NCBI GenBank assembly: GCA_017998375.1
Contig: JAGODF010000001.1
Span: forward strand, 1-53,552
Direction of reading: 5' to 3'
Length of the DNA: 53,552 bases
Origin: Spirochaetota bacterium
GTDB lineage: Bacteria; Spirochaetota; UBA4802; JAGODF01
Positions 7,354 to 27,261 of the stretch are shown one piece after another; the first letter of the stretch is position 1; each line of letters begins with the position of its first letter. A program made the translations under genes and the position numbers. The notes beneath the pieces are model-generated. The model was not told the origin of the DNA. It saw only the letters and a program-made list of their open reading frames with translations, and did no database searches.

Positions 7354-7399
7354 TGCGCGTCCAAGAGGATTCGAACCTCTGACCCACGGATTCGTAGTC
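7354..7399 (-). repeat. int-distal att repeat = displaced 3' half of tRNA-Arg(ACG)
   Basis: 46 nt match 27216-27261 at 44/46 positions; mismatches at 7364 and 7380. Confidence 0.9.
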
Positions 7400-7878
7400 A
7401 AGAAAGCGAAAAATTTATCTACGTTTCCCGGTGTTTCTCATTGTTTATTACTGTTGATATAATAATGAAGAAAGTCAAGTGAAAAAACAGTGGTCAACGA
7501 TGAGAAACAACGATAGTGTTTTCATTCATCTTACATTTATCTGACACGGACAATTGATTAGTAACCTTGCAGATGAGTAAGGATCGGTCTCCAATATCGA
7601 CTGAGATGCTCCCTAAAGGCTTATGGTGGTGTGTATGAAGACTTAGTGAGGTGTGTGACCCCTTCCCGGTACAGTTTCCTTCCTTTTTAAAATTATTAAA
7701 GATCAACAATGAAGGTGTACCCTGCTATTTTGAGTTCTGTAATTATGAAAAAGATAAATTATGGTAACATTGTTGACAAACAGCAGATTTAACTCCATTA
7801 TCCAGCTATACCAGAAACAAATAGCTTTCCTCTGAGATTATGGTGCATGTTTTAATCAGGATTTAAGAAAACAGATAA

Positions 7879-8658
7879 ATGGCAGGTTCTTCAATGAAAA
7901 GATATATGATTATCCTATTACTTTTCATCATCACGTTCGGTATCAGATATGCATATAGTCAGTCCGGTGAAAATAATAAAGAGGATATAGCAGAAGAAAA
8001 CAGCAATACGGTAAAAGCGATAAATTCCACAGCATGGAAAACTGATTCAGATACAATTCTGTCAATAATAACAAATTTACGAAATTATAAAGAAAGCTCT
8101 GATGATTCAACCCTAAAGACCAAACAAAAACAAAATACTCTGAAGCGGGAATTATTTAAAATAAATAAAGATTATCACAATAAGCCTTTATCATTGAAAG
8201 CAATAATAATTGAAGATGTAACCGCTGAAAAAGATTTATCTGATTATGGGAAAAGAAGAGCAAAAGAAATACTCCGTAAAATAAAAAAAGATCCATCATC
8301 TGCAATGTTTATAGGTGACGGGAATCTTGAAAACAATCCTCTGCTCGTTTTTACATTAGCAATACACCTTGCACTGTGCGAAAAATGCTATAAGGAAACC
8401 GGGCGTTATGAGGTTAAATGCAAAATTCCTGTGCCAGATGAAACTGGTTACTCTCAATTCAGAACAGGAATTAAAGCGGGCAACTCTTTAAGTGATGATA
8501 ATGATAAAATCGACGCTGAAATAATTTTAATCCTGCAATCTGAAAAAAAGGCATTGGATTATTCAAAAGGATCAATCATCCCTATTAGCGGCAAGATAAA
8601 AAGCATTGTTTATAAGGGGTCTCAATTCTTTGAATCAGTTACTATTAGGATTGAATAA
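7879..8658 (+). CDS. Secreted hypothetical protein
   Basis: Signal peptide MKRYMIILLLFIITFGIRYAYSQ (alternative ATG at 7894); no recognisable domain. Confidence 0.5.
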   Translation: MAGSSMKRYMIILLLFIITFGIRYAYSQSGENNKEDIAEENSNTVKAINSTAWKTDSDTILSIITNLRNYKESSDDSTLKTKQKQNTLKRELFKINKDYHNKPLSLKAIIIEDVTAEKDLSDYGKRRAKEILRKIKKDPSSAMFIGDGNLENNPLLVFTLAIHLALCEKCYKETGRYEVKCKIPVPDETGYSQFRTGIKAGNSLSDDNDKIDAEIILILQSEKKALDYSKGSIIPISGKIKSIVYKGSQFFESVTIRIE

Positions 8659-8706
8659 TGTATTGTAATAAATTCATGGCGTTCCTGTAAAGCAACACGA
8701 GCAGAA

Positions 8707-9108
8707 ATGAGTGATAAGTTAAAAACACAAAAAATTATCTGCTTCATTAACGACTATATGAAGTGGGACGACACAATCCATGAACACGCCTGCATTTTCA
8801 ATAATATTTATTCAGTATATCCCAACCTGATGCTTGCATCAAAAACAACATGGAAGAAAATCGATAAGTACGCGAATCTTTTCAATCCTGATAATATAAA
8901 AGCTTCTGAATCAAGCATTGAAAATATCAACCTTGAGGAAGAAATAAAAACAATATCCTGTTTTACAACATCTGATTATTCGATTGAATTTTGCTTTGAT
9001 GAAAAGGTTAAAGAAGATTATTTTATTCTGGTTTTCGATGAAGAACCTATATTTGATGGCGAGCCTGTTGACGATGATACGACAGAAGTATATCGAAGGA
9101 TAGCTTGA
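8707..9108 (+). CDS. Hypothetical protein with strongly acidic C-terminal half
   Basis: ATG start, 48 nt after the upstream gene and 48 nt before the RM gene. C-terminus is DEKVKEDYFILVFDEEPIFDGEPVDDDTTE. Confidence 0.45.
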   Translation: MSDKLKTQKIICFINDYMKWDDTIHEHACIFNNIYSVYPNLMLASKTTWKKIDKYANLFNPDNIKASESSIENINLEEEIKTISCFTTSDYSIEFCFDEKVKEDYFILVFDEEPIFDGEPVDDDTTEVYRRIA

Positions 9109-9156
9109 AATACTTATTATGAGAATCAATAGCTGAGGAAAAGAGTATAAAAAGAA

Positions 9157-11895
9157 ATGAAAAAAGAACTAGTTCAACTAAGAAATTATATTACAAGCCC
9201 AGAATCAGAAAACGCTTCTAACCATCATGTTTATCCATTTTTTCAGCGAGTATTTAGAGAAGATAAATTTAAAAAAGAATCTGAGGCTGCTGGGGCAGAT
9301 ATCTATATTGAGGGCCGTCTTGTTGTTGAGCTGAAAACCTCCGAGAATGATTGGTTAAGCGGATTTTTCCAAGCTTTACATTACAGCAGAAAGGGGTTGA
9401 GCTTTTCCGCAATCTCTGTAATAACAAAGAATTTCATTGGTCTATGGCATGTAGACAACTTACCTGCCGAAGTAAATACAATACTCACCAATTCAGATTC
9501 TAATAAATCTGCCAATGAAATGGGTAGAATAAATGCGAATAAGTGCAGTAAGGCCCTCGAAAAGCAAATATTGACCAGAGCCAATTTTTTATATGAAAGC
9601 GAAGTCAATCTCTTTAATCCCGACCTGGATGTCCAGCTCCTTGAGTTCGAGGACCGTTTAAAAAACCTGGATGTTATCCGCAATCAAATAAATCCCGGTA
9701 ATTTCTTGCGGAAAATCGGCCTTTTAAAGCAATTTTTCACCAATCCCCTGGACGCTATCCATTGTTTTTATACAATCCTCCCCTTTTGGGATGTTACATC
9801 AAAGGTGCCAGATGCTCTTCCATCGAAACCGACCCATCTTCTTCTAACCACAAAGAGCGGGTCAGCAATTAGCGAATCATTCATTATGGAGCCTAAACAC
9901 CATAAGGATTTTAGAAGTTTTGTAGAGAGCCACTATGTTTTTACCAACGATGAAGGCGGGATTTCTATTGATTATTATTTCAGCCGCTTCGACGAAGCTC
10001 TTGCGGAGCACGACCCAGATTATGTAAAGCAGCACGGGATATTCTTTACGGATATCAACTTGAGCAGATTTGCGCTATGGTTTATCAGGGAGAAATTTGG
10101 CGAGAAGAAATTAAGTGATAAATATATAGTAATCGATCCTGCTGGGGGGTCCGGCAATCTTGTAAGTAGCTGGAGAAGGAATCATCTAAAATTCAAAATC
10201 GTATCCGAGCTAAATCCTGATCTCCTTAGAACTATTGAATTGCGACTGAAACATGATCCCGTGCAAATAGAGCAAGGGTATAGCATTATCCCCAGAACAC
10301 ATGAAAATAAGGGTCTAAATTTTATTGATAAACCGGCCGGGGACTACTACTCCATTTTGGAACGGTATTTAAAAGAAGAAGGAAAATCGATAGATAAGCC
10401 TTTCGCTTTCCTACTGAATCCTCCCTATAAAAACACGGATGAAAATGAAACTGTCCGGGATCAAACCGAGGCAAATTACGGTATTGATCCGTCCATCGTT
10501 CAATTAACCGGAAATGATGCCGGAAACGAAAGATACCTGGCGTTCCTTGCTCAAATTCTTGAAATCAGCAAACTGCAAAAAGAGAAACTGCCCGATATTG
10601 AACCGGCTTTAATGATATTTACGCCAACATCCTGGTTGATTCCCCGACCATCATATAAATCATTCCGAGAAAAATTTGATGCTTATTTCAAATTTGAAAA
10701 AGGTTTTATGATCACAGGCCAGGAGTTTTTCAAGGGAACCGGACGATGGCCAGTAGCTTTCACAATATGGAGATACAACCAGCGTAAAAACAACAATAAG
10801 GTGATATTGCTTGATTTGACCGATTTGCCGGGATCAGCTTTTTTAACGGTAAACTGGAACGAAAGCCTTGAAAAAATTAACACCGAGGTTAAAAGGATAA
10901 TCCGTGGTAAAAATGAAGTATTATTTGATGAATCAAGGGAACAAATTAAAGAAACACTACCATTGCTGATAAACACAAAGAACAATGAGGCAGAAAAACA
11001 GCAGATGTATGATTTTAAGCGAAGCCCGACCGATACTGAATTAAAATCAAGATCAATCTTTGGGGGATTACCTCTTAAAGACGTAAGGAGGGCCAACAAA
11101 AAAACCTATGGATCACATAACGGGAATTTCATTGGTTTCATGGATAATGGCACTCCTGTACGGGTAAACCAGGATAAATACAATCGAATGTCCCTGAAGC
11201 CAGATAGAATTTGGTTTCGATTGGATAACGAAATAAAAAGTGTCAACAAATCAAAGTTGTTCAATGGTCCCACGGATAACAGATCGTATTGTGCCTATGA
11301 TTTAGAATCAGCAAAGTCTCTTATTTCATGGTTTTCCATCACAAAAGCAATAAACGGGGTATATCCGGTTTGGGCAAACCAATTCGATATTTGGGCACCC
11401 AGCATACCCACAAAGTACGAGCGCGATTACTATGCTCTTTGCTTTGCATTTGTATTAGCTGAAAATCGCTGCATAGTTACAAAATTTGAAAAGGATAATC
11501 CCGTCGAAGGTGCTCCTGAAATCTTTGTGGATAATCCGTTATGCCCGATCAATTCAGATTCATTTTGGTCAAAAACACTCGATCCAGAGGTTGCCGAACC
11601 ATTGGCAACCAAGCTCGTTGATTCCATCAAATCACTTTACACCTATTGGAATGTCAATTATTGCAGGGGGCAACAAGTGGATTATGCTGGCCTCCAGGAT
11701 GAACCATATTTTAAATATTTTGACTATCCCGATTTTGTGACTCCATATTCGGGATTGATCCAAATTAAAAAGTATGCGGAATTACAAGGAAAAACTGATA
11801 TATCCCAGGTATTTGATACCATCAGGGAGTTGACGAAACAGGTAAAAGAAAGCATCTACAATATGCTTGTGCAAGATTTTAAGTATTTTGAATAA
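9157..11895 (+). CDS. Single-chain Type IIG/IIL-like restriction endonuclease / N6-adenine DNA methyltransferase (MmeI-like architecture)
   Basis: N-terminal D-X9-E-X-K (ADIYIEGRLVVELK) followed by QALHY, as recalled for MmeI (DLFWPGILLIEMK...QALDY). SAM motif I is VIDPAGGSGNLV and motif IV is LLNPPYK. The C-terminal region of about 400 aa could be a target-recognition domain. 912 aa. Confidence 0.6.
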   Translation: MKKELVQLRNYITSPESENASNHHVYPFFQRVFREDKFKKESEAAGADIYIEGRLVVELKTSENDWLSGFFQALHYSRKGLSFSAISVITKNFIGLWHVDNLPAEVNTILTNSDSNKSANEMGRINANKCSKALEKQILTRANFLYESEVNLFNPDLDVQLLEFEDRLKNLDVIRNQINPGNFLRKIGLLKQFFTNPLDAIHCFYTILPFWDVTSKVPDALPSKPTHLLLTTKSGSAISESFIMEPKHHKDFRSFVESHYVFTNDEGGISIDYYFSRFDEALAEHDPDYVKQHGIFFTDINLSRFALWFIREKFGEKKLSDKYIVIDPAGGSGNLVSSWRRNHLKFKIVSELNPDLLRTIELRLKHDPVQIEQGYSIIPRTHENKGLNFIDKPAGDYYSILERYLKEEGKSIDKPFAFLLNPPYKNTDENETVRDQTEANYGIDPSIVQLTGNDAGNERYLAFLAQILEISKLQKEKLPDIEPALMIFTPTSWLIPRPSYKSFREKFDAYFKFEKGFMITGQEFFKGTGRWPVAFTIWRYNQRKNNNKVILLDLTDLPGSAFLTVNWNESLEKINTEVKRIIRGKNEVLFDESREQIKETLPLLINTKNNEAEKQQMYDFKRSPTDTELKSRSIFGGLPLKDVRRANKKTYGSHNGNFIGFMDNGTPVRVNQDKYNRMSLKPDRIWFRLDNEIKSVNKSKLFNGPTDNRSYCAYDLESAKSLISWFSITKAINGVYPVWANQFDIWAPSIPTKYERDYYALCFAFVLAENRCIVTKFEKDNPVEGAPEIFVDNPLCPINSDSFWSKTLDPEVAEPLATKLVDSIKSLYTYWNVNYCRGQQVDYAGLQDEPYFKYFDYPDFVTPYSGLIQIKKYAELQGKTDISQVFDTIRELTKQVKESIYNMLVQDFKYFE

Positions 11896-11959
11896 CTGAA
11901 TGATGTATAATGAGTTTCTGTTTATATTATTTTATTCTCCAACGTCCTGACATTTCTAA

Positions 11960-12790
11960 ATGTTTAGAATTACTATTATACCAATGCCTGTTGAGGAGGA
12001 TTGGATTTTTCTTGCTGGCAGCATTGGAATAATTATAATATTCGAGGTAATAAATTTGTTAAATGCTATGTATAACATTCTCTTCAAGGAATTGTACTAC
12101 TCTTATTGCAATATTATCAAAGATTCCCGATACAGCAAAAAGAAATATTGCCTCATGTATCCTTGTGTCGGAGAATATTATAGGAAATCCAAATTTTTAT
12201 TTGTGGGGCGTGCTGTAAATGGTTGGAATACTCAATTTGTGTGTAATAGAAAAAACTATTCTATTGTAATAAAAAGTATAAAAGCCTCAATGAAAGAAAA
12301 AACAAGATGGATCGAGGACAATGAAAAAGGATTAAATGAGTATTACAATGGTAATAGAAGTAGATTCTTGAAATGTTGTTCTCGGGTATTACATGAAGTC
12401 ACTCAAAAAAATATTATGATGGATTCTCATTGGTCAAAACACATTGCATGGTCAAATCTCATGAAAATCGCCCCTTCAAAAGGCGGCAATCCGACTGACC
12501 GAGAGTGTTATGCTCAACTGGACATTTGCCGCGATCTTTTCAAACTCGAACTTGACCTTCTAAAACCTCGATTTGCATTTATTTTCACTGGTTTGAACTG
12601 GTTCGATAACGGTGACTTTACATTCGTATCGCCATTGGGGATTAAGTTGAAATTCGTCAAAGATAAAGTCGTAAAAGCGATCGGAACTTATAAAAGAACA
12701 CAGCTGATTATTACGGAAAGACCCGATAATCGGAGGGAGGGGTTTACGAATGACATGTTTGTGAAGAGTTTTAAAAAATACATAGTTTAA
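11960..12790 (+). CDS. Divergent uracil-DNA-glycosylase-superfamily (family 4/5-like) protein
   Basis: SNLMKIAPSKGGNPTDRECYAQLDICRDLFKLELDLLKPRFAFIFTGL parallels the UDG-family pattern N.VKCRPP.NR.P...E...C...L..E+.L+.P+++..LG. Motif A is replaced by FVGRAVNGW and motif B by ITERPDNR. The start is uncertain (ATGs at 11960, 11984 and 12068). Confidence 0.45.
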   Translation: MFRITIIPMPVEEDWIFLAGSIGIIIIFEVINLLNAMYNILFKELYYSYCNIIKDSRYSKKKYCLMYPCVGEYYRKSKFLFVGRAVNGWNTQFVCNRKNYSIVIKSIKASMKEKTRWIEDNEKGLNEYYNGNRSRFLKCCSRVLHEVTQKNIMMDSHWSKHIAWSNLMKIAPSKGGNPTDRECYAQLDICRDLFKLELDLLKPRFAFIFTGLNWFDNGDFTFVSPLGIKLKFVKDKVVKAIGTYKRTQLIITERPDNRREGFTNDMFVKSFKKYIV

Positions 12791-12902
12791 TATATAAAAA
12801 CATCGAAAGAAACCTTATGGGTAAGATATTAGCATAGCGTTACAAATATTATTCCGATATGAATAGTAGCTTAATGGAGCGTATTTGTGCTTTGTTTTAA
12901 TG

Positions 12903-12953
12903 TTGACGTGGAATAAAGACGTGGTATTTATCAAATTCTTGAAATCTTTCAAG
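12903..12953 (+). promoter_or_regulatory. Candidate promoter/operator of the PanA-toxin operon
   Basis: TTGACG (12903-12908)-N16-TATTTA (12925-12930). Direct GACGTGG repeats at 12905 and 12918. Perfect palindrome CTTGAAATCTTTCAAG at 12938-12953. Confidence 0.3.
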
Positions 12954-13012
12954 TATTTGATTACTTTCCTATTGGGTACAAAAAGATTTTAATACGGTTG
13001 ATATAATAAAAC

Positions 13013-13561
13013 ATGAACACCATTAACCTTCATACCCTTTTGCTAAATATATTAAAATCTGTTAAAGAATACAGAGATGGTATTCTCATCACACGACTTA
13101 TAAAAATGGCATACCTTGTTGAGGTACTCTACTATCGTAAATTTCATCAAAGATTGACAGACGCCCAATGGGTCTATTATAAGTACGGTCCATATATAAT
13201 GGATATTGATACCCACCTTAGTGATAGAAATATCATAGCAGAAGAAATCGAAGATAAAGAACTCACAAAGTTCATGGTAAAGGATTATGCTGAAATTGAT
13301 GAGGTGCCAGCCGAAGTTCAGACAATCATCTCATCAATTATAAGGAAATACCATGATGTTGAGCTGAGTGACTTATTGGATTATGTATATTATGAAACAG
13401 AACCAATGATGAATGCAGATCAAAGAGGAGAGGTTCTTGATTTCTTAAAAATATTACCAAGCGAATATTATAAAGTAAAAAAACTTGAGTGTTCTGATGA
13501 TGTCATCAAAGATATTAAACTAAAGTATAAAGAAAAAATAAAAAATGCCAAGCACTTATAA
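13013..13561 (+). CDS. Panacea-domain (SocA-like, DUF4065) putative antitoxin
   Basis: ITRLIKMAYLVEVLYYRKFHQRLTDAQWVYYKYGPYIMDI fits the Panacea signature (KL.KL.Y......G.P.....+.A...GP). It overlaps the downstream gene by 17 nt. Confidence 0.6.
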   Translation: MNTINLHTLLLNILKSVKEYRDGILITRLIKMAYLVEVLYYRKFHQRLTDAQWVYYKYGPYIMDIDTHLSDRNIIAEEIEDKELTKFMVKDYAEIDEVPAEVQTIISSIIRKYHDVELSDLLDYVYYETEPMMNADQRGEVLDFLKILPSEYYKVKKLECSDDVIKDIKLKYKEKIKNAKHL

Positions 13562-14333
13562 GGGTATCCCCGATTTATACGATACGGTTTGTGGGGAATT
13601 CGATTCGAGCTTCTACGATTGGATATTACCACCGGAATCAAGTACATTGCAGGTGGGTCAGTTGTGTAATGCCCCGGTATGGTATGAGAGAAAAAAACGC
13701 TGGTATCTTACAGAAGAACATTATTATCCCACAAGGGAGGAGGAATCCACCTGGAGAGCAAATATATATTCGGGAAAAAGTAAAGTAGAAAGAGAACCTC
13801 AGCATATTGTTGCAAAATATTTTGAACTGGAAAAAGGTGAAAATCTTTTTGCTTCTCCCGGAAAGTACCGACCTGTAATCCTTATAAGAAAATATCAAAA
13901 TGATTGGCTTAACCCAGCTAATACATCTGAGCATATAGCTACTTGGTTATGCCTTCCATTGTTTTCATATAAAGACAGACACAACCAACCATTTGTACTG
14001 AATGACATGGCTTTTAAAAGCCCTGAAAGAGTATATATCCCTCCAAGTTATAAAGATAAACCCGGTGGTATCATTGAAAGTTCAGCGCAATTTCTTTCAA
14101 TCCAAATGATTAAGGAAGAATACTTAGAGCCTTTGACGTCAATGAGTGGAATTCGACCGCCTAAAATGCAAAGACCATTTAGAGTGAGCAATTTCGCTCT
14201 TAAAATCATCATGTTCCATTTCCTCAAACATTTCAATCTGTTTGATGTTTTATTGGACAGTTGTGATACTGATGGGAAAACTGCTTATACTTTATTTGTG
14301 GAAGAAGTAAATGAGATTCTTTCAAAGTGCTGA
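13545..14333 (+). CDS. Putative toxin partner of PanA; long, insertion-bearing PemK/MazF-like protein
   Basis: Ordered MazF-like elements: VGQLCNAPVW, then GKYRPVILIRKY, then WLCLPLFSYK, then ESSAQFLSIQMIKEEYLEP. There is an insert of about 55 aa and a helical C-terminal extension. Translationally coupled to PanA. Confidence 0.35.
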   Translation: MPSTYKGIPDLYDTVCGEFDSSFYDWILPPESSTLQVGQLCNAPVWYERKKRWYLTEEHYYPTREEESTWRANIYSGKSKVEREPQHIVAKYFELEKGENLFASPGKYRPVILIRKYQNDWLNPANTSEHIATWLCLPLFSYKDRHNQPFVLNDMAFKSPERVYIPPSYKDKPGGIIESSAQFLSIQMIKEEYLEPLTSMSGIRPPKMQRPFRVSNFALKIIMFHFLKHFNLFDVLLDSCDTDGKTAYTLFVEEVNEILSKC

Positions 14334-14351
14334 AAACTCTGGAGTTGATTA

Positions 14352-14546
14352 ATGACAAAAATTGTATGTGAAGGGTGTGGAGCTGTTTATGAGATTGAAG
14401 AACATCACATTATAATGCGCGATAAAGATTCGATTGAATGTCACCATTGTAACACTACTTTAATTTCATGGAATGGTGGTCATTGGTATACGGATAAAGA
14501 AATTTCTGGACCAACTAAAAACTTCATAAAAAAGGAAAACCTTTAA
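14352..14546 (+). CDS. Small zinc-ribbon protein
   Basis: CEGC...CHHC pairs; GGAG RBS; starts 18 nt after the putative toxin gene. Confidence 0.5.
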   Translation: MTKIVCEGCGAVYEIEEHHIIMRDKDSIECHHCNTTLISWNGGHWYTDKEISGPTKNFIKKENL

Positions 14547-14914
14547 ACTTATTATTGATTTTCTTCTATTTGATTCCTTAAATCTATTAATACGCTGTCG
14601 TCACCAACGGCGATGAATGGCCTAACCGGCACTGTACGACCAAAACTATCAATCATTATGTTTGCAATCAAAAAGATTAGGGCGAATAATTTAATATTTT
14701 TGCTCAGGTCGATAATTATTCCATGAAACTCCTCGAATGCCACCAATGCCAGCACAGAGTAACCCTCACCGACCAGGGGGGGTATTTGTGATTATTATGA
14801 TGATAAGCGTCACCGACTGGCATTTGAAACGGTTGACAAGACTAGGGAAGTGATTCCATGCCCGAGGGAGGAGATGATTGTCAGGCAATAATATTATTAT
14901 ATGGTTAGATTCTC

Positions 14915-15157
14915 TTACTTTTCGATATCAAGAAGATTGCGAGGATGAAGATTCAAGGAATTTGCAATTTTAACTAATGTTTTCATCGTGAAATTGACTT
15001 CACCATATTCTATTCGTTGAAAATATTTGTAATCTACACCATTGACTTCAGCCAACTTTTCCTGGGTTAAACCTGCCTTTTCCCTTTCAGCTTTAATTAT
15101 TCGTCCTACCTGGAGCAGAAAATCAGAAGCATTATATTGATTCCCTCTTTGTTTCAT
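14915..15157 (-). CDS. XRE-family helix-turn-helix regulator
   Basis: AGLTQEKLAEVNGVDYKYFQRIEYGEVNFTMKTLVKIANSL. The canonical ATG is at 15157; the track ORF starts at a TTG at 15163. Confidence 0.8.
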   Translation of the reverse strand: MKQRGNQYNASDFLLQVGRIIKAEREKAGLTQEKLAEVNGVDYKYFQRIEYGEVNFTMKTLVKIANSLNLHPRNLLDIEK

Positions 15158-15189
15158 TAGCAAATACTATCAAAATGTAATTGCATTAA

Positions 15190-15211
15190 ACACCGTACTA
15201 TAATACGGTGT
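15190..15211. promoter_or_regulatory. 22-bp palindromic operator candidate centred on a TATAAT box
   Basis: ACACCGTA-CTATAA-TACGGTGT lies in the divergent region between the XRE gene and the 15253 gene. Confidence 0.45.
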
Positions 15212-18179: not shown

Positions 18180-18189
18180 ATGCTATATA

Positions 18190-20503: not shown

Positions 20504-20545
20504 ACACACACCCCTTTTGCGACATCAATATAAGGTTTGATGAGT

Positions 20546-20728
20546 TCATTTCTTACCTCCGCAGTCCGAAGGTAAAAAGCTAATTTCGCGGGTTATAGTG
20601 TATCGAGCAAAACGGCCCCCGTGTCGAATTATCTCTAATTTTATTGAACCATGGGAAACTCCTGCGATTTCTTTTTCAAACTGGGATATTATTTCTTGAG
20701 GAATAAAATTTTTTTTGGTGGGTTCCAT
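20546..20728 (-). CDS. Small protein, YezD/DUF2292-like
   Basis: GVSHGSIKLEIIRHGGRFARYTITRE resembles the YGSV.L.+.+G+V pattern. The ATG overlaps the upstream stop (TAATG). Confidence 0.35.
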   Translation of the reverse strand: MEPTKKNFIPQEIISQFEKEIAGVSHGSIKLEIIRHGGRFARYTITREISFLPSDCGGKK

Positions 20729-20949
20729 TATTTTCCCTCCACAGCAATTGAATGCTCTTGCAAAAATGAATTTATTTCATCAAGATCATACCTGACCGAT
20801 CTCCCAATTTTATAATGAGGAATTTTTTTTTGTGATGTCCACAGCCTGACAGTTTGATTGGAGATGTTCAGATAATTGGCGAGTTGTTTCCCGTTAATTT
20901 TTTTTTGAAGCCAGAAACAATCACGAGGGTTTTCTTCTGGGGTTTTCAT
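20728..20949 (-). CDS. AlpA/excisionase-family HTH protein
   Basis: LANYLNISNQTVRLWTSQKKIPHYKIGRSVRYDLDEINSFL (HTH_17-type). ATG at 20949 after AGGAAGG. Confidence 0.7.
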   Translation of the reverse strand: MKTPEENPRDCFWLQKKINGKQLANYLNISNQTVRLWTSQKKIPHYKIGRSVRYDLDEINSFLQEHSIAVEGK

Positions 20950-21403
20950 AGCCGACACCTTCCTGCATTTTATCAGAAAATGTGCGCGGGCTATTTGGTG
21001 CCGAATTGCGCGAAGCTCACTGAAAAATGAAATATCGTGAACTTTATATAAACACCTTAATAGATAGCTGATCTTTTGTCAACAATTAAATATTCCATTA
21101 AACATAGTCATAACAAGATAAATTTTGAATATATGTATATCAGGCGATTTTAAAATGAGGCAAGTAATCGGACAAAAGAGTTAGTTATGTCATGTATGAG
21201 CTAATGATAATAGAAAAAGCAATAATATATTAAACAAGTCGGAATTCCCTATTCTAGGAAGAACTTTTTGCAAACATGATTATTTTGAGAGAAAACAATT
21301 ACAGTGAGAGGGTTACATTTAAATAATTGAAAACTTAGAATACTTGACAAAAATAATAAAATTGTAAAATATGTATTAATCAAAACAACATCAATAATTT
21401 AGC

Positions 21404-21856
21404 ATGTTGATAAAAAAAGCAAAAGCGAATCTTGACATCGCGCGATATTGTGCAGGTTGTTCAGATGTTAGCTATTATTCAGTTGGTGCGTCAAGAGCTT
21501 ATTACTCAATTTTTCAATCAGCAAAGTCGATATTGCAAAATGGATCATTCGATTATTTTTCTTTTCTGAACACAATACCAAAGAGAAAGGAATATGATCA
21601 TGATAATCATAAGCCTTATTCTCATGGTACAATATCTTCTGCTTTATGCACTTATATTTCCAAACGTCCCAAATATATCGAAGAAACTCATAAATATTTA
21701 CAATTTCAAATAAATGCGACTTTTAGCGCACTTTATAGTTTGCGAGTTCAAGCCGATTATGAGGGTAAGGACATCGAAATAAGTATTCTTAACGACGCTA
21801 TAAAGAAAGCCGAAAAACTAATATCTGATCTAAAATTATTTATTGGATTTAATTAG
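21404..21856 (+). CDS. HEPN-domain-like protein (putative toxin of a TAC-like operon)
   Basis: AKANLDIARYC...SRAYYSIFQSAKSIL, YSHGTISSAL and LYSLRVQADYEGKD match the classical HEPN helix pattern (A..dL..A...YyA.f.a.kAlL...sH.g...lR..adY). Confidence 0.5.
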   Translation: MLIKKAKANLDIARYCAGCSDVSYYSVGASRAYYSIFQSAKSILQNGSFDYFSFLNTIPKRKEYDHDNHKPYSHGTISSALCTYISKRPKYIEETHKYLQFQINATFSALYSLRVQADYEGKDIEISILNDAIKKAEKLISDLKLFIGFN

Positions 21857-22349
21857 CATGGATTACGAAATAGCAAATATAATTAGAGACCATATTTATG
21901 AGTATAAATACAGATTCGGATTTTTACCTGTAAAACTATCTATAATAAATAATGAGATATTTGTTCTTATAAATTCACTCGAAGTATTAGATAATAATGA
22001 ATACCAAGAGATGATTTATAATTTTAATACTGAATATTTCAAGAGAGGTTATGTTAATATTTATTGGGGTATAGATGATTTCATTGATGACGATTTTAGT
22101 CAATTGTATGAATATAGTAATTTCATCATTCCTATGATCAAAACATCATCAGCAAATATTTTAAATGAATTTGATCTAACAAAGAATCTTGATAATTATT
22201 TAAATATATTTGATAATTGCCAAAACGATATCGAAACTACGGGAAAAATAACAACGTATTTGGATTATAATAAAGATAAGCAACCAATAAAAGAGAATGT
22301 AATAAAAAACAAATTTGTTCCTAATGTAAATTTTACACTAGCGGCATAA
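21843..22349 (+). CDS. Acidic hypothetical protein (putative antitoxin of a TAC-like operon)
   Basis: Overlaps the HEPN gene by 14 nt (an alternative ATG at 21858 starts 2 nt after the HEPN stop, leaving a 1-nt gap). D/E/N-rich; no MNT GS..D.D motif; ends 2 nt before the SecB-like gene. Confidence 0.45.
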   Translation: MDLISMDYEIANIIRDHIYEYKYRFGFLPVKLSIINNEIFVLINSLEVLDNNEYQEMIYNFNTEYFKRGYVNIYWGIDDFIDDDFSQLYEYSNFIIPMIKTSSANILNEFDLTKNLDNYLNIFDNCQNDIETTGKITTYLDYNKDKQPIKENVIKNKFVPNVNFTLAA

Positions 22350-22351
22350 AT

Positions 22352-22825
22352 ATGAATAACCAGATACTTTTAAATTTTGAAAAAATTTACTATCCTGAAA
22401 TTCGTCTTTCGTATAATCCGAAGTATAAAAATAATTATGATATGTTTACAGATGTAAGGGAAATTGAGTGTAAAATATCTATTGCTGGGAATGTTAATAT
22501 TATTAACGATAATAAATTGATTTGTATTGTAAACTGCAATGTTATGTGTAACCATAAGGACTTTGCAGATTTTTCGAGATTAAATATTATTTCACATGGG
22601 ATATTTGCTACCCCAGATAAATTTTCCATTGAAACAGTTCAAGAGTATCATCAGAATTTTTATGCTATAGTATACCCATTTATTCGAGAGACGGCTCATA
22701 GTGTATTTATGAAAAATAGAATAAGCTTTATTATGCCAATAATAAACTTTCTTCAAACAATTAAAGACAATCCTTCTAATTTTAAAATTATGCAAACAAA
22801 TAACAATGGAGATGATAAAGCCTAA
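22352..22825 (+). CDS. SecB-like chaperone
   Basis: LNFEKIYYPEIRLSYNP aligns with E. coli SecB FQIQRIYTKDISFEAPN. SHGIFAT...FYAIVYPFIRETAHSVFMKNRISFIMPIINF aligns with GGIFSI...[32 protein letters not shown]. Confidence 0.7.
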   Translation: MNNQILLNFEKIYYPEIRLSYNPKYKNNYDMFTDVREIECKISIAGNVNIINDNKLICIVNCNVMCNHKDFADFSRLNIISHGIFATPDKFSIETVQEYHQNFYAIVYPFIRETAHSVFMKNRISFIMPIINFLQTIKDNPSNFKIMQTNNNGDDKA

Positions 22826-22871
22826 TTTCGTTGATAAAGCTAAAACTGAGAAAATTTGACTTGGAATCAAC

Positions 22872-23456
22872 TTAAGTAAACATAATTGTTTGTCGTCCCC
22901 TGTGTCTTGGTTTGTAATCACTTTCTAAAGGATTATCCGAGGCTAATGCATTCCCAAGTGATTTGAAGTCGTTAGCCTTTAGGCCAACTTTGTTGTCTGT
23001 TTCTAGAAGCGTAAACAGGTCTTGATGGTTCCCAAGAAGGTATGAAAAGAAATCCGATATCTTTTTGAACCAAGCTTTGAACTCGTTATTGAAATCCCAG
23101 TCTTTGATCGAAATGAGGCGCTTCTTGGTAATATGACTGACACGTTGATGTAACCGATCAAGAAATGCATTGTCAGCAGATGAGAGTTCGATTGAATTGT
23201 AATTATAGTCCGAAGAATTAATATCTCTATTATCTGTCCTAGTTAAGAGCAGTATCAAATTTCGCGTGTGCGTACAAAGCCCCTCAAGCAATCCGCCACG
23301 AACTGCCAGGTCAATGGCCGGTTCGGAAATCCAACCGAGTTCACCATTCATTTTTCTAGTCCAGAAAACATGAAGTGCCTTTGCCATGAGAAGCGCCATC
23401 TCGGCTTCGTAATGGATATGCTTTAAACCTTGTATCTTCTCATCGAGGTTTAACAT
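22872..23456 (-). CDS. Hypothetical protein
   Basis: ATG start, 194 aa, predicted helical; no domain recognised by eye. Confidence 0.45.
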   Translation of the reverse strand: MLNLDEKIQGLKHIHYEAEMALLMAKALHVFWTRKMNGELGWISEPAIDLAVRGGLLEGLCTHTRNLILLLTRTDNRDINSSDYNYNSIELSSADNAFLDRLHQRVSHITKKRLISIKDWDFNNEFKAWFKKISDFFSYLLGNHQDLFTLLETDNKVGLKANDFKSLGNALASDNPLESDYKPRHRGRQTIMFT

Positions 23457-23489
23457 TAAAATAAACCCTCCCTCATTGATGTTATAAAG

Positions 23490-24224
23490 TTAATTCTCAT
23501 TTCTTATAAGACATTTCAGTGTTTTAATTATCTCGGATTTCGGAACATTATCGCCGGATTCTAATTTTCTTAACAATTCACCAGGCGATAAAACATTGTT
23601 ATTATCTTGAATGAGTTGCTTTTCAGAAGGGGTAAAAGATACAATTTTGCAAAATACTTCTAATTCTGGCCCAAATCCCAATTGCCTATTAAAACTATAT
23701 GTTGCCTCTGGCCCAAAATATGCGACTTTTGTGATTATAATTTTACCAGAGAAAAGCTTTGATTCTTCAAATTTTTCAATGATGGCTGATGATGTTGCAT
23801 TATGTTGAGTATTGATTTCAGCTTGGCTGAATATTTTAAAAAAAATTCGATTTTTCTTATAGTTTTCTGTGTGGGTAATGGGTGACTCATAACAGTTAAG
23901 CCTGAAATAACGATTTTCTCCACCAAGCGTTTCACGTTTGAAAGTATCTCTCACAAACAAACACGAATCCGTGGAGGAAATTTGTTTGCCATTAACAAAT
24001 ATTGAATCTAAAATATGCCTTATTTCTTGATCTGCTTTTTTTGCCTTAATTGACAAGCCTTTCTCTTGATATTCATTCGCATCTTTTGCTAAATAAAATA
24101 CCTTATTCAATTTATCAAAATCGATTACTTGCTTATTTTCCGCGAAAGTAATTGAATTAAAAGATAGAAATGCAAAACTACATAATCCAATAATTAGTAT
24201 TTTCATTTTTAGCCTCTTTGTCAT
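23490..24224 (-). CDS. Secreted hypothetical protein
   Basis: Signal peptide MKILIIGLCSFAFLSFNSITFA; no recognisable domain. Confidence 0.5.
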   Translation of the reverse strand: MTKRLKMKILIIGLCSFAFLSFNSITFAENKQVIDFDKLNKVFYLAKDANEYQEKGLSIKAKKADQEIRHILDSIFVNGKQISSTDSCLFVRDTFKRETLGGENRYFRLNCYESPITHTENYKKNRIFFKIFSQAEINTQHNATSSAIIEKFEESKLFSGKIIITKVAYFGPEATYSFNRQLGFGPELEVFCKIVSFTPSEKQLIQDNNNVLSPGELLRKLESGDNVPKSEIIKTLKCLIRNEN

Positions 24225-24289
24225 GTTAAATAATCGACAGTTAATATTATGCTAACTGTTGTAAAAAATATCAAGGTATAATATTCAGA

Positions 24290-25144
24290 TTATGCTTTAT
24301 TCATCCTTTCGCATAGTTTATCCAAAGTCTGAAACTCGTCTTTTGAAAGTTTAACAGTGCCAGAGTAATAACCATTTACGCATTTTGCCAGTTTCTTCAA
24401 AACATGATTCAATGCCCTGCGGATAAACCTTGCTTCAATATCAGAAAATTCAGTGATATATAATCGTGATGTTTCCTTTTTCACAGTTTTATTCCTGAGT
24501 TCGTTCCGCGTAATATTCTTTTCCGCTCTTTGTTTTATCAGACTCTTTTTTATGGTTTTATCTTTAATTGCCCTTATCTCAGAAAAATCCTGTAAAGTCA
24601 CGCCGCGTGACTTTTTTAGAATCTCCATATTATCCGGATCACTTTCAATTTCTTTAATCCCCGAAAACAAGTTCTTGATATACCCTTCAGCCTTTCCAAG
24701 GATTCCGGCAATCTGTTTAATCGTCAATCCTTCTTGCCGTAATTTCTTTAATGCATGATACAGTTCAATAGGCTTTAAATCAACCCTCTGGACGTTTTCT
24801 ATCAATTGCCTGATGATGATATTTTTATCGTCGGTGATTATCGCTTGAATAGAGTGATACTGGTCTTTATTTTCCTTGTAAAGCTCGCGATATGCACGTA
24901 ATCGTCTGTGTCCGATAATACAAAGATAATCTTCTCCATCTTTACACACGGTAATCGGTTGAATCAGACCGACTGTTTTTATACTTTCCTTCAAATCGTC
25001 AATATCACAAGTATCATGCTCCCTGAGATTCTGCCTGGCTGATATTTGACCGATAGGGATTGTCTTAATGGTAACGGTTCCAGTATCCCGAGTCCCTGTT
25101 CTTTCAGTTACTTGTTTCAGTAGTTCTAATTTTGCCATGTTCAT
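24290..25144 (-). CDS. parB: ParB-family partition protein
   Basis: ParB N-terminal domain: LKESIKTVGLIQPITV...IIGHRRLRAY. Overlaps parA by 4 nt. Confidence 0.8.
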   Translation of the reverse strand: MNMAKLELLKQVTERTGTRDTGTVTIKTIPIGQISARQNLREHDTCDIDDLKESIKTVGLIQPITVCKDGEDYLCIIGHRRLRAYRELYKENKDQYHSIQAIITDDKNIIIRQLIENVQRVDLKPIELYHALKKLRQEGLTIKQIAGILGKAEGYIKNLFSGIKEIESDPDNMEILKKSRGVTLQDFSEIRAIKDKTIKKSLIKQRAEKNITRNELRNKTVKKETSRLYITEFSDIEARFIRRALNHVLKKLAKCVNGYYSGTVKLSKDEFQTLDKLCERMNKA

Positions 25145-25914
25145 ATCCCCTTTCCGTTCAAGTTAACTGCTAGGGTTTCTGCCATGTAATTCTTAATTTC
25201 AGCGTATTGTCGTACTGTTTCTTGCCGGTCGTTTATCCGGTAGCCGTCATCATTGATATACTTTTTAATGGCTGATGATCGAGTTAATTGAGCGGTGATA
25301 AATGGTGATATTCCAGCGTCATGCCTGAAAAGATTTACAACCTGATTGGTGAATGTGCTCAGGTTTTCTGTCCTTGGTTTGTCGTACTGGTTGAACACAA
25401 CATTTATTTCAAGGTTGGCAAGATCAAGGTCGGCAAGTTTTTCAAACAGGAATTTAAGAGCCTGAAAATTGAATACATCGGGGATTACTGGAATAATTAA
25501 TGTATCACTTGCATATAAAACATTGATAATGATGTTATCATAGGAAGGTGCTGTGTCGATTATCACATAATCATATTCAGTCAATTCATGTATCTGTCTT
25601 TTCAGCCGCTTATAATTATCAATGCTTCGAAAGTCCGAAAGCCTGACATCCGCGTGAACAAGGTCAAGGAGGTCATGTATCAGAATAGTGTTTTCAAGAA
25701 TACCATTACCAGCAAATACTTTAAAAATGTTTTTATCATGAATTGTTTCAAAGGGTATCCCGGAGTTGTAGTAAAACGAAAGGGAATGGTTTGCTGTATC
25801 CGTGTCAATGGCAAGGCATTTGTAACCGGCACTGATTAGACTGTTCAAGGTAATTATTGACAGAGTGCTTTTACCGGTGCCGCCCTTTGTGGTGTGGAAG
25901 GATATAGTTTTCAT
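25141..25914 (-). CDS. parA: ParA/Soj-family partition ATPase
   Basis: Deviant Walker A TTKGGTGKST; Walker B YVIIDTAP. Confidence 0.85.
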   Translation of the reverse strand: MKTISFHTTKGGTGKSTLSIITLNSLISAGYKCLAIDTDTANHSLSFYYNSGIPFETIHDKNIFKVFAGNGILENTILIHDLLDLVHADVRLSDFRSIDNYKRLKRQIHELTEYDYVIIDTAPSYDNIIINVLYASDTLIIPVIPDVFNFQALKFLFEKLADLDLANLEINVVFNQYDKPRTENLSTFTNQVVNLFRHDAGISPFITAQLTRSSAIKKYINDDGYRINDRQETVRQYAEIKNYMAETLAVNLNGKGI

Positions 25915-25915
25915 A

Positions 25916-27112
25916 CTATTGCACCTCCTGCCCGATTAAGCCCGTAAACAAGCTGTCCTGGACATTTCTAACATCCATCATATCGTCGATGTGGTAGTAA
26001 TGGGAGGTCATCTGTGCCGTCATATGACCCGTTATGCTTTGAATTTTTTGAATTGGAATCTTGCTATTGATTAAAAGGCTATTCAGGAAGTGACGCCAAC
26101 TGTGGAAAGTGATGTTACGACGCTTGCGTTCGGCTTTATCTATCCCTATTTTTTCAAGTGCTGTAAAAAGCGCCCGGACAAAAACCACTTTTTCCGCTGG
26201 TTTTTCGACTGGTTTTTTCTCTCCAAGGAATAAAAAAGCTTCTGGATTGTTTTTTAGAGGATGTTCGGCTAATAGTTTATTTGTCGCATTGATAACCTGT
26301 TCCGGTATAAAAATTGTGCGTTCCCTGCCTGTTTTGGTGGTTTCATTTAATTTGCTTAATCGGCTGTCCCAGGATCGTTTCACCATGATATAACCCTCGG
26401 ATAGATGTAAATCCTGTATCTTAAGACCCTGAAGTTCTGACAGTCGAAGCCCCGTTGATGCCGCGAGAAGGTTTCCGACATATCCGGTAAATACCGGTTT
26501 TGGCGGGTGACAGTGTATTGGTCTCGATAACCATTGAAAAGAAAAAAGGCGATTTACCTCTTCAAGAGTCAATATGCCCTTTTCTTTTTGTCGTTTTGCC
26601 ACTGGCGCAATTTTGGGCACTCCTTTAATCAGACCATCCTCTTCGGCCATTTCCAGCACAGCCTTGATTGCATAAAGGGCCTTATTGATTAACGAGCTGC
26701 TTTTCCCCTTATTGAATAAACTATTCCGAAAGTTCTTTAAAAGAGGTCTGTCAATATCAGTGATTTTAGTTGAGCCAAAATATGGTAGTACATGATGCCT
26801 TACAAGGTCAGCCGTATCAAGGCAATGCCGCTCTGATAATCTTTTTCCAGCAGCCCTTTTGTCCAATGCCCATCGGCCGTTCCAGTCAAAAAAATGATCG
26901 GCGTATCTTTCGAAGATTATTTCACGGCCGGGCATAGGTGCGCCGTGATTTTGCAGGTAATCGTAAGCCCAGGAATCCGCCGCTCGCCGTGACGTGCATC
27001 CGGTGCTTTTGGCTGTAGTATATTTTCCGTCTGGTTGCTTGAATTGAACGTAGTATACGGCTTTACCGTCTTTACGCTTTCGGGGGTATAATGAAAAACC
27101 GGCCATTCTCAT
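25916..27112 (-). CDS. int: Tyrosine recombinase / integrase
   Basis: Catalytic C-terminus: LRLSEL..., HSWRHFLNS, GHMTAQMTSHYYH. Strong RBS GAGGAGA. Immediately downstream of the tRNA-Arg 3' end. Confidence 0.9.
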   Translation of the reverse strand: MRMAGFSLYPRKRKDGKAVYYVQFKQPDGKYTTAKSTGCTSRRAADSWAYDYLQNHGAPMPGREIIFERYADHFFDWNGRWALDKRAAGKRLSERHCLDTADLVRHHVLPYFGSTKITDIDRPLLKNFRNSLFNKGKSSSLINKALYAIKAVLEMAEEDGLIKGVPKIAPVAKRQKEKGILTLEEVNRLFSFQWLSRPIHCHPPKPVFTGYVGNLLAASTGLRLSELQGLKIQDLHLSEGYIMVKRSWDSRLSKLNETTKTGRERTIFIPEQVINATNKLLAEHPLKNNPEAFLFLGEKKPVEKPAEKVVFVRALFTALEKIGIDKAERKRRNITFHSWRHFLNSLLINSKIPIQKIQSITGHMTAQMTSHYYHIDDMMDVRNVQDSLFTGLIGQEVQ

Positions 27113-27215
27113 TCTCCTCGCAAGATAACGTCATCTGACATTTATCTCACTTTTTAAGATAATGAGAAACGCCGGTTTTCCGGTAGTCTCTGATGCCTGA
27201 ACTATTCAGGACTTA

Positions 27216-27261
27216 TGCGCGTCCAGGAGGATTCGAACCTCCGACCCACGGATTCGTAGTC
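27216..27261 (-). repeat. int-proximal att repeat (element-derived 3' half now completing tRNA-Arg)
   Basis: Matches 7354-7399 at 44/46 positions. Confidence 0.9.

Follow-up and report, generated by a model that had tools for sequence, protein, structure and literature searches.

A candidate PICI-like phage satellite with plasmid-type partition genes, integrated at tRNA-Arg of a Spirochaetota bacterium

Contig JAGODF010000001.1 of the assembly GCA_017998375.1, assigned to a Spirochaetota bacterium (UBA4802; JAGODF01), was analysed over its full length of 53,552 bp, a stretch referred to here as the window. Positions 7400–27214 of the window form an AT-rich segment of 19,815 bp with a GC content of 0.363, flanked by DNA of 0.632 GC on the left (1–7352) and 0.589 GC on the right (27262–53552). 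This segment is, apparently, an intact integrated element that belongs to a small family present in Spirochaetota metagenome bins and seemingly not described before in this phylum. The left transition is sharp, from 0.66 to 0.32 within 200 nucleotides (nt; 7300–7500), in agreement with the abrupt drop at 7400 reported in a preliminary description of the same DNA, while the right transition is softer because the integrase gene lying there itself has a GC content of 0.44. The compositional gap, put at roughly 30 points in that description, measures 23–27 points. A direct repeat of 47 nt, which comprises the 3' 45 nt of tRNA-Arg plus 2 nt, bounds the element (7353–7399 and 27215–27261). The repeats of the tRNA-Arg 3' half noted earlier are therefore real, but they extend over 47 rather than 46 positions and are identical at 45 of them. 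The proximal attachment (att) repeat (27215–27261) was located by repeat comparison inside an intact tRNA-Arg(ACG) gene, the integration target (27217–27291, minus strand; ARAGORN; Rfam 67.3 bits), which adjoins the gene of a tyrosine integrase; the distal one (7353–7399) is a partial copy of the tRNA 3' half and adjoins a host hairpin and tadA. With att repeats at the tRNA 3' half and the integrase gene beside the intact tRNA, the tRNA-integrating architecture proposed earlier holds. Neither ARAGORN nor Rfam finds a second tRNA-Arg in the contig, where the intact tRNA-Arg is followed by two tRNA-Ser genes and where these three tRNAs are the only Rfam matches.

The att copies differ at just two positions (7364 and 7380 against 27226 and 27242), which together form a single T-stem pair, A-T in the distal copy and G-C in the intact tRNA. 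Because this pair is compensatory, the comparison implies that each copy descends from a functional tRNA-Arg allele and, by the same token, that the attP of the element would derive from a functional allele other than that of the present host. Such a two-allele pattern is expected if attP was copied from the tRNA of a former host. On the distal side, a perfect 16-bp hairpin (7316–7351) stands beside the gene of the TadA-like deaminase (6851–7306, minus strand). With the site empty, tRNA-Arg(ACG) would lie immediately upstream of the TadA-like gene, the hairpin between them. TadA edits A34 of tRNA-Arg(ACG); the insertion now puts 19.9 kb between tRNA and tadA and may have cut tadA off from transcription coming from upstream.

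The element contains 24 open reading frames (ORFs) at a coding fraction of 0.88, about 10 of them without annotation. Its proteins were searched against Pfam, PHROGs and NCBIfam, those of the cargo also with PADLOC. Related elements were found from the genomic context of the closest homologs of a 484-amino-acid (aa) protein discussed below, and the window proteins were compared with theirs by BLASTP. Three of these elements are named here by their loci: L090/L091 (JGI 3300010353; GCA_029560295.1), L092/L093 (ENA ERZ4240871; GCA_964649175.1) and L097/L096/L099 (Logan SRR29927251 for L097, Logan SRR8925714 for L099 and JGI Ga0265293_10031605 for L096).

Nearest to the intact tRNA, int (25916–27106, minus strand; PF00589, 4.4e-24; phrog_1, 1.8e-48) encodes the tyrosine integrase, which is 62% identical to that of L090 and in which the catalytic R, HxxR and Y residues are readable; its likely start is the second ATG (MAGFS...), in a start context common to L090. 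It is followed by parA (25141–25914, minus strand; AAA_31, 1.4e-24; phrog_164, 5.8e-32), encoding a protein with the deviant Walker A motif KGGTGKST, and by parB (24290–25144, minus strand; ParB_N, 5e-11; phrog_3264, 6.6e-26), whose product joins a ParB_N domain to a helix-turn-helix (HTH) and carries a GHRRLRA arginine patch. The stop of parA overlaps the start of parB by 4 nt, which makes the two one operon with the ParA and ParB of a type Ia/Ib ParABS system, and a 16-nt imperfect inverted repeat (I4) lies inside parA. Further inward, an HTH_17 protein (20728–20958, minus strand; PF12728, 1.2e-12; phrog_66, 'excisionase and transcriptional regulator') represents the AlpA/excisionase type, its match not being specifically to the Pfam family Phage_AlpA. 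Downstream of this alpA-type gene stands that of a family-conserved 60-aa protein (20546–20728, minus strand), kept in this position in L090, L092 and L097 with 47–54% identity, and after it the gene of a primase-helicase of 635 aa counted from the ATG at 20503 (18596–20503, minus strand; AAA_25, 2.6e-25; phrog_239, 1.6e-30). The primase-helicase consists of a weak N-terminal Zn-finger CHC2/DnaG-like region, a Toprim domain, an AAA_25 helicase domain and a C-terminal winged HTH (wHTH), and its N-terminal part matches NF005477 at 2e-26. The 635-aa form is 100% identical to a protein on record (P0001); exact-protein look-ups of the GTG-start form and of TadA returned no match on record.

A candidate origin of replication (ori), already suspected in the preliminary description, could be localised to a cluster of seven RCAAAC iterons within 92 nt (18558–18649; inverted pair I7), out of 26 copies in the whole element. 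Four coding-strand iterons, spaced by 18, 9 and 9 nt, lie within the final 60 nt of the ORF for the primase-helicase and encode its TNN-repeat tail, and three inverted iterons with 9-nt spacing follow immediately past the stop codon. Homologous primase-helicases at three other loci (L008, L005 and L004; 48–52% identity) show this layout too, built from other hexamers: L008 and L005 use CTAAC/GTTAG, and L004 uses GCTACCC/GGGTAG. Repeats that vary with the Rep protein while their geometry stays constant are what one would predict for Rep-specific iterons. An explanation of the TNN-repeat C-terminus as mere low complexity was considered and rejected, as the unit changes between homologs together with the inverted copies past the stop. 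An ori beside rep is the arrangement of Staphylococcus aureus pathogenicity islands (SaPIs) and of phage-inducible chromosomal islands (PICIs) at large.

Beyond the iterons lies the gene of a small terminase subunit. This TerS (17366–17965, minus strand) is of the Terminase_2 type (PF03592, 8.9e-19; phrog_51, 2e-25) and is 32–43% identical to its counterparts in L090, L092 and L097. Directly upstream of terS, a small ORF encodes a Cys-rich protein of 74 aa (17955–18179, minus strand) that is 46% identical to the product of a 79-aa ORF in the same position in L092. Profile matches in Pfam and PHROGs thus confirm the whole set of int, parA, parB, alpA/xis, primase-helicase and terS listed in the preliminary description. 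On the other side of terS, an HTH_3 regulator of the Cro/CI type (14915–15163, minus strand; PF01381, 1.5e-10), whose position is kept in the relatives, is divergent from the gene of the 484-aa protein and is a candidate repressor of this putative morphogenesis operon.

The 484-aa protein (15253–16707, plus strand) is a homolog of a phage head-module protein and our candidate for a hijacking factor. Among its 45 homologs, an N-terminal domain of about 230 aa is conserved, with invariant Y51, W52, C157, W159, C160, G165, R169 and P172 (CxWC), and it is followed by a C-terminal repeat of about 65 aa that occurs in one to four copies, two of them in the window (16345–16391 and 16543–16589). One homolog, of 474 aa, is encoded downstream of TerS, TerL (Terminase_3) and portal genes in L094, a contig of 93.7 kb and 0.36 GC from an uncultured phage. 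The C-terminal repeat is 57–63% identical between the two proteins and the CxWC domain 31%. The C-terminal module is thus far more conserved towards L094 than the rest of the protein, and this pattern suggests that it may be an interaction domain exchanged with helper-type phages. The possible MuF-like character raised in the preliminary description is plausible, but the similarity is weak and transitive: 22 of 43 homologs match phrog_2468 ('head morphogenesis'), with a few matches to phrog_3517, phrog_1657 and phrog_115, and the window protein is not among them. Moreover, these head-morphogenesis matches fall mostly N-terminal to the shared region, and the shared region matches PHROGs of unknown function. 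AlphaFold models the full protein with a mean predicted local distance difference test (pLDDT) score of 80.6 and residues 1–235 with a pLDDT of 87.0 and a predicted template modelling score (pTM) of 0.81. MuF-fusion, GpF-like and 'head morphogenesis domain' proteins are retrieved with Foldseek at E 0.05–0.24 only, none of the known PICI morphogenesis families matches the protein, and two short loci were all that a metagenome scan for its family contributed.

At least three related elements share a common set consisting of int, alpA, the 60-aa gene, a primase slot, a Zn-finger gene, terS, HTH_3, the 484-aa gene and the 259-aa gene. The order in L090/L091 is tRNA-Trp, int (62%), a ligase-like gene, HigB/HTH, HTH_17, 54 aa, PrimPol-PriCT_2-DnaB_C, 376 aa, 83 aa and Terminase_2, and then, on the other strand, 273 aa, HTH_3, 60 aa, a 419-aa homolog of the 484-aa protein (63%), 137 aa (61%) and 244 aa (30%). 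In L092/L093 it is HTH_17, 63 aa, a PrimPol-type primase, 375 aa, 79 aa, Terminase_2, HTH_3, 170 aa, a 346-aa homolog and 262 aa, and in L097/L096/L099 HTH_17, 63 aa, an 851-aa protein, Terminase_2, HTH_3, 277 aa, a 525-aa homolog and 261 aa. Besides TerS, the 60-aa protein and the 74-aa ORF, for which identities are given above, AlpA is 34–42%, HTH_3 35%, the 484-aa protein 44–63% and the 259-aa protein 49–51% identical to the relatives. The primase slot (18596–20503 in the window, 6354–8243 in L090, 4752–6608 in L092 and 3011–5566 in L097) holds three unrelated types, namely Toprim-AAA_25-wHTH, PrimPol-PriCT_2-DnaB_C with the 376-aa protein, and the 851-aa protein without a Pfam match, while the flanking alpA and 60-aa genes on one side and the Zn-finger and terS genes on the other stay homologous. 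The compared relatives lack ParAB, the HEPN operon and the 912-aa, 276-aa and 194-aa proteins. All relatives are found in contigs of 0.32–0.45 GC, and the neighbouring host genes of L092/L093 as well as the L091 primase fall into clusters at ≥90% identity whose named members are labelled Spirochaetota. These comparisons argue that the reduced, phage-derived gene set is conserved under selection rather than left by a decaying prophage, and that its usual habitat is probably low-GC spirochaetes. Because the GC content of 0.36 is unameliorated and the relatives sit in low-GC contigs, they also indicate a recent arrival, presumably from a low-GC spirochaete. The very recent acquisition from a distant donor proposed earlier is therefore upheld as far as compositional distance goes, but the donor probably belonged to the same phylum.

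Both ends of the element carry a further signature of site-specific recombination. The 15-mer CCGGYGTTTCTCATT has exactly two copies in the window, against 0.04 expected, at 7428–7442 (plus) and 27161–27175 (minus), that is, 28 and 39 nt inside the att cores and inverted relative to one another. In the left arm (feature 7428–7512) the motif reads CCGGTGTTTCTCATT and has an inverted degenerate partner at 7486–7512 (pair I1), and in the right arm (feature 27095–27179) it reads CCGGCGTTTCTCATT on the minus strand, its inverted partner extending over the start codon of int (I2). The paired motifs look like arm-type sites for Int and Xis, which would make them candidate parts of a real attP. The int-proximal arm of L090 is near-verbatim that of the window (TAAGTCCTGAA...CAGAGACTACCGGAAAACCGGCGTTTCTCA; L090 11520–11640 against window 27100–27214), and it abuts tRNA-Trp(CCA), not tRNA-Arg. 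In two independent cases, the window and L090, the element ends exactly at the 3' end of the tRNA. Arm sites kept while core and target changed, Trp-CCA against Arg-ACG, give the appearance of a recent target switch.

The primase-helicase leads to a sister replicon in two metagenomes, L005 (1–7603) and L006 (1–6764) from JGI 3300010352 and 3300009692, whose primase-helicase is 52% identical to that of the window and has iterons of its own. It forms a circle or concatemer of 7.46 kb with 133 nt of terminal redundancy, is circularly permuted between the two metagenomes, and encodes int, DUF7706, ParA, the primase-helicase, a DUF4355 scaffold-like protein, a major capsid protein of the HK97 type (PDB 8e16 gp6, E 1.6e-27) and small ORFs; portal, terminase and tail genes were not found in L005/L006. 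It looks like a minimal, capsid-encoding satellite-like replicon, and the comparison shows a replicon lineage that is used by other satellite-like elements, repeatedly together with ParA.

Searches beyond these elements brought few relatives. Megablast of the core (17300–27300) against GenBank phages and PLSDB plasmids gave no match, and IMG/VR yielded neither relatives in single-sequence scans with TerS, the primase-helicase and the 484-aa family nor an exact match to the left end of the element. Alignment-based scans of IMG/VR reached at most 45% identity for the primase-helicase, mostly in high-GC uncultivated viral genomes (UViGs) of about 10 kb, and at most 36% for TerS, with no other family gene co-occurring. 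A scan of GTDB genomes with the primase-helicase alignment returned matches to the AAA_25 region only, at most 44% identical, in Alphaproteobacteria, Actinomycetota and Clostridia, again with no family gene co-occurring. Of the searches advised in the preliminary description, that for relatives of low GC brought up low-GC Spirochaetota contigs. Many of the IMG/VR contigs with distant AAA_25 relatives (L107–L115, L121–L127 and others) are complete at about 9–12 kb and mostly of high GC, a size expected of satellites and not of phages.

Between the conserved genes and towards the left end lies the cargo. Its largest gene encodes a 912-aa protein (9157–11895, plus strand) with the motifs DPAGGSGN and NPPY and an N-terminal D...ExK. 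The family is rare, with 323 matches among 1.84 billion representatives; its members hardly vary in methyltransferase motifs I (DPxxGSGN) and IV (NPPY), and D...ExK belongs to their consensus. The protein has no Pfam match above threshold and no PADLOC or PDB sequence match at threshold; weak profile matches are to TIGR02987 (4e-4), HsdM (EcoR124II), BpuSI, N6_Mtase and Eco57I, and 4 of 17 family members weakly match MmeI_Mtase. Our best guess is a single-chain restriction-modification (RM) enzyme resembling type IIG/IIL, from a rare uncharacterised family. It is followed by a 276-aa protein (11960–12790, plus strand) with a sub-threshold match to the uracil-DNA glycosylase (UDG) superfamily (19.7 bits, cutoff 24.3) and no PDB match, and by a Panacea (SocA-like) antitoxin of 182 aa (13013–13561, plus strand; PF13274, 3.2e-10), whose gene is overlapped by 17 nt by that of a putative toxin partner of 262 aa (13545–14333, plus strand). 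The partner shows no recognisable toxin domain or family in Pfam, PADLOC, PHROGs or PDB. The pair is conserved in L004 alone (13907–15218; 42% for the antitoxin and 48% for the partner), an otherwise different element with a related primase-helicase, located beside tRNA-Arg(TCT). Next to it, a 64-aa zinc-ribbon protein (14352–14546, plus strand) matches Zn_ribbon_4 at 1e-4, below cutoff. A three-gene operon (150, 168 and 157 aa; 21404–22825, plus strand) has the lowest GC content in the element, 0.274, and begins with a gene whose HEPN match is marginal (24.1 bits, cutoff 22). PADLOC recognised no known defence system in ten cargo proteins, and PDB sequence searches with the 912-, 484-, 262- and 276-aa proteins and an A3 profile gave nothing significant. 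The earlier statement that the remaining space is filled with defence and addiction genes is thus supported in part only, by the Panacea antitoxin with its conserved partner, the protein with N6-adenine methyltransferase motifs and the marginal HEPN match, but not by any system known to PADLOC.

The remaining ORFs include two more that are conserved in the family. The 259-aa protein (7879–8658, plus strand; phrog_10632, 1.8e-14; 49–51% to L092, L096 and L097) has a signal-peptide-like N-terminus, and its homologs in the relatives stand after the 484-aa homolog; a 133-aa protein (8707–9108, plus strand) is 61% identical to the product of an ORF, of 137 aa in L090, beside the 484-aa homolog in L090 and L095. 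A 244-aa protein (23490–24224, minus strand), likewise with a signal-peptide-like N-terminus, has a homolog in L090 and L095 (30% over 218 aa). No match in Pfam, PHROGs or NCBIfam was found for a 194-aa protein (22872–23456, minus strand), nor any family match for a 180-aa protein with a signal-peptide-like N-terminus (16744–17286, plus strand) or for a 91-aa protein (18190–18465, minus strand), which is called as a gene in the Logan assembly L089.

The flanks of the contig carry ordinary chromosomal functions, including fructose-bisphosphate aldolase, AraC regulators, oxidoreductases, the TadA-like deaminase, a resistance-nodulation-division (RND) efflux pump with an outer membrane protein (OMP) and TetR, TPM, a TolB/OmpA-like protein, radical SAM, GAF, iron-containing alcohol dehydrogenases and an aldehyde ferredoxin oxidoreductase. 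Capsid, portal, large terminase, tail, lysis, relaxase and type IV secretion system (T4SS) families were matched neither in the element nor in the flanks, so the absence of capsid, portal, tail, lysis and conjugation genes described earlier extends to the rest of the 53.5-kb contig. In particular, full virion genes nearby, which would have pointed to an ordinary prophage fragment, were looked for in the flanks, and only chromosomal genes were found. Two stretches of the host flank have a lower GC content, 30393–35753 (0.46–0.55; the AcrB/OMP/TetR efflux operon) and 41629–42666 (0.44; a GAF-domain gene); they may be older horizontal acquisitions and have no associated mobility genes. The aldehyde ferredoxin oxidoreductase (49921–51783) has an identical protein on a contig of 114,208 bp, which could stem from a longer assembly of this organism.

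Considering all of these features, we think it probable, with moderate confidence, that the element represents a new Spirochaetota family of PICI-like phage satellites, and that it recently moved to a high-GC host and can persist as a partitioned plasmid. The PICI-like assignment is strengthened because synteny is conserved across L090/L091, L092/L093 and L096/L097/L099 while the primase is swapped. From genes and motifs we infer a life cycle of excision, Rep-iteron replication, TerS packaging and ParAB episomal maintenance, with roles for the 484-aa protein and the cargo. Infection by a helper phage, or its induction, would relieve repression by the HTH_3 regulator, upon which AlpA/Xis and Int, acting via the inverted arm motifs at both ends, would excise a circle of 19.86 kb. 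The C-terminal wHTH of the primase-helicase would bind the RCAAAC iterons straddling its own stop codon, and the circle would be replicated. The TerS of the element would then recognise a pac site on it and recruit the large terminase of the helper, so that the DNA is packaged in helper capsids, while the 484-aa protein might join or perturb the assembly of the helper procapsid or portal. Outside the chromosome, the excised circle would be maintained by ParAB as a low-copy plasmid, and the cargo (the RM-like methyltransferase fusion, the Panacea-type toxin-antitoxin pair and the HEPN-like genes) would make the element more stable and perhaps shield its host. A more far-reaching proposal, which we hold only tentatively and consider rather doubtful, is a Spirochaetota satellite family that hijacks its helpers through TerS together with a MuF-related protein of the portal or head, the C-terminal repeat domain of which was taken over almost unchanged (57–63% identity) from helper-type phages, that swaps primases freely while the alpA/terS scaffold stays constant and replicon-specific iterons lie in the 3' end of rep, and that in this member has added ParAB to alternate between an integrated and a partitioned-plasmid state. 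If it were true, helper phages or particles would deliver DNA across deeply diverged spirochaete lineages about 25 GC points apart.

The satellite assignment must be taken with caution, since it rests wholly on in silico evidence from metagenome assemblies and since several observations weigh against it. No helper phage was found among GenBank phages or in IMG/VR. TerS has three homologs in 5.8 billion proteins, all on contigs shorter than 1.5 kb, and tblastn of TerS and the 484-aa protein against 50,697 GenBank phages gave no match, nor did IMG/VR contain a close one. The 484-aa protein of the window itself matches no Pfam, PHROG, MuF or head-morphogenesis profile, and Foldseek searches with the full model and with the N-terminal domain returned nothing at E ≤ 0.001. 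The element, with its 19.8 kb, has about double the median size of PICIs, and ParAB is neither a PICI feature nor present in the closest relatives. Finally, the host is represented by a contig of a metagenome-assembled genome (MAG), in which the right junction is without independent support. This last point bears on the question whether assembly or binning fused the element of a low-GC organism, sitting in the tRNA-Arg of that organism, to a high-GC contig via the common tRNA, as tRNA sequences are conserved across taxa and all relatives sit in low-GC contigs. We judge this highly improbable, because it would take two chimeric joins, both correctly oriented, and because a separate Logan assembly reproduces the left junction: L089 (run ERR7570006; 12,354 nt) equals window positions 6871–19224 with 1 mismatch and thereby joins 480 nt of host DNA to 11.8 kb of the element. 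Logan assemblies use a k=31 graph, and the exact stretches common to both att copies (11, 15 and 19 nt only) are too short for a collapse in such a graph. In addition, the high-GC sequence begins again precisely within the tRNA at one end of the element and precisely with the partial copy at the opposite end. The int-parA-parB region recurs with 100% identity in three further short contigs (ERR7570006, ERR7570000 and SRR11088371).

The most probable of the rival explanations is an integrative plasmid or a non-satellite genomic island that would pass between chromosome and plasmid by means of Int/Xis, Rep-ori and ParAB, in which terS and the 484-aa gene are leftover or co-opted and which spreads by generalised transduction, transformation or another, unrecognised route. 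The intact parAB operon beside int, the plasmid-like primase-helicase and iteron ori with relatives on Entomospira plasmids (P0047, P0048), and a size and cargo resembling defence or addiction islands all fit this possibility. It is nonetheless unlikely in our view, as terS, the Zn-finger ORF, HTH_3, the 484-aa and the 259-aa genes are intact and syntenic in at least three elements at 32–63% identity with the primase swapped, while ParAB is the part that these relatives lack. Because the set from terS to the 259-aa gene was kept while the primase was exchanged, selection appears to act on the packaging or hijack module. The same recurrence of one reduced gene set in independent relatives makes it quite improbable that the element is what remains of an AT-rich temperate phage that entered tRNA-Arg and then shed its genes for structure and lysis. 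In favour, terS and the head-module homolog are phage-derived, and a tRNA-integrated, int-first layout is common to prophages; yet neither pseudogenes nor fragments are seen for terL, portal, capsid, tail or lysis functions, the coding density is 0.88 with intact ORFs, the flanks hold only chromosomal genes, and the unameliorated GC content and the 100%-identical copies in other metagenomes argue for recent mobility. The smallest chance is given to an integrative mobilizable element (IME) conjugated through the T4SS of a helper. Int/Xis, ParAB and an AAA_25 RepA-like protein do occur in some backbones of IMEs and of integrative and conjugative elements (ICEs), and the roughly ten unannotated ORFs leave room for conjugation functions, but no relaxase, type IV coupling protein (T4CP) or T4SS is matched in Pfam, PHROGs or NCBIfam, and the conserved terS and head-module gene point to phage-mediated transfer.

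The favoured assignment to a PICI-like satellite has several implications. Nearly all known phage satellites come from Proteobacteria and Firmicutes, and this element offers a candidate family in Spirochaetota that is open to testing; the literature consulted contains no paper that connects this phylum with such satellites. As a lead it is well delimited, with a defined core, att sites with arm motifs, an iteron ori and a new candidate type of hijacking gene. It would combine satellite with plasmid-partition functions, a combination that is probably under-recognised according to reviews (PMC12282955). It would also be a record of genes passing very recently between members of one phylum that differ widely in base composition, among them those of the uncharacterised RM-like family of about 900 aa and of the Panacea pair.

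Among known mobile elements, integrative plasmids and phage-plasmids resemble the element in ParAB partition, the iteron replicon and the integrase; phage-plasmids, however, encode full virions, and integrative plasmids are without terS or a head-module gene. No relaxase of the kind that marks ICEs and IMEs was matched in the element, and its genes fall outside the definitions of capsid-forming PICIs (cfPICIs), of PICMIs (phage-inducible chromosomal minimalist islands) and of prophages. Satellite P4 has a plasmid state, and the element, plausibly integrated or plasmid, shares with P4 and other plasmid-type satellites the alpA-type regulator and a large primase-helicase beside which the ori lies; unlike P4, it has no detected psu, delta or sid homologs, whereas P4 is not known to carry ParAB or terS. 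Plasmid-type satellites are probably under-recognised, as a review points out (PMC12282955). PICMIs lie next to fis, have a core of three proteins, lack both terS and a morphogenesis gene, and occur in Vibrionaceae only (Barcia-Cruz et al. 2024, PMC10803314). The element is similar to them in its minimal int/alpA/primase core, its defence cargo and a possible packaging of concatemers in full-size helper capsids, and differs in targeting a tRNA and in encoding terS and a head-module homolog. With cfPICIs it has in common a satellite logic in which head genes come from phages, scaffold and major capsid genes being present in the sister replicon L005/L006, but the element itself is devoid of capsid, portal, terL, protease and head-tail connector genes.

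The closest correspondence is with PICIs, which include SaPIs and the EcCICFT073 type and whose core as defined in SatelliteFinder (de Sousa et al. 2023) comprises int, a regulator (alpA, merR or an stl homolog), a primase-replicase, capsid morphogenesis and terS, and from which tail, holin, portal and head-tail connector or adaptor genes are excluded (PMC10085698). More than 99.9% of PICIs are from Proteobacteria or Firmicutes, their median size is 9.5 kb, and 17 of 1435 measure 20–28 kb; the authors predict many undescribed satellite families (PMC10085698). The element differs from PICIs in its phylum, in its 19.8 kb, of which ParAB and cargo make up the excess, in carrying ParAB at all, and in its candidate morphogenesis gene, a MuF-related head-module homolog and not of the Ppi, CpmAB, Ccm or Rpp types. 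It shows no detectable sequence relationship to them beyond generic domains. For the PICI-type match put forward in the preliminary description, the conserved synteny in related elements is thus a gain and the length of 19.8 kb with ParAB an atypical trait. What the element shares with PICIs is site-specific integration with int at one end; the order of int, accessory genes, alpA-type regulator, primase-replicase, ori beside rep and terS (Terminase_2); the lack of portal, tail and holin genes; and accessory, defence-type cargo both between int and the regulator and beyond terS. Integrase, regulation, primase-replicase with ori, and terS are all present, and none of the excluded components was matched in the 24 ORFs or the flanks. 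With four of the five core components in canonical order and no excluded one, the element would, by architecture, be a Type B PICI.

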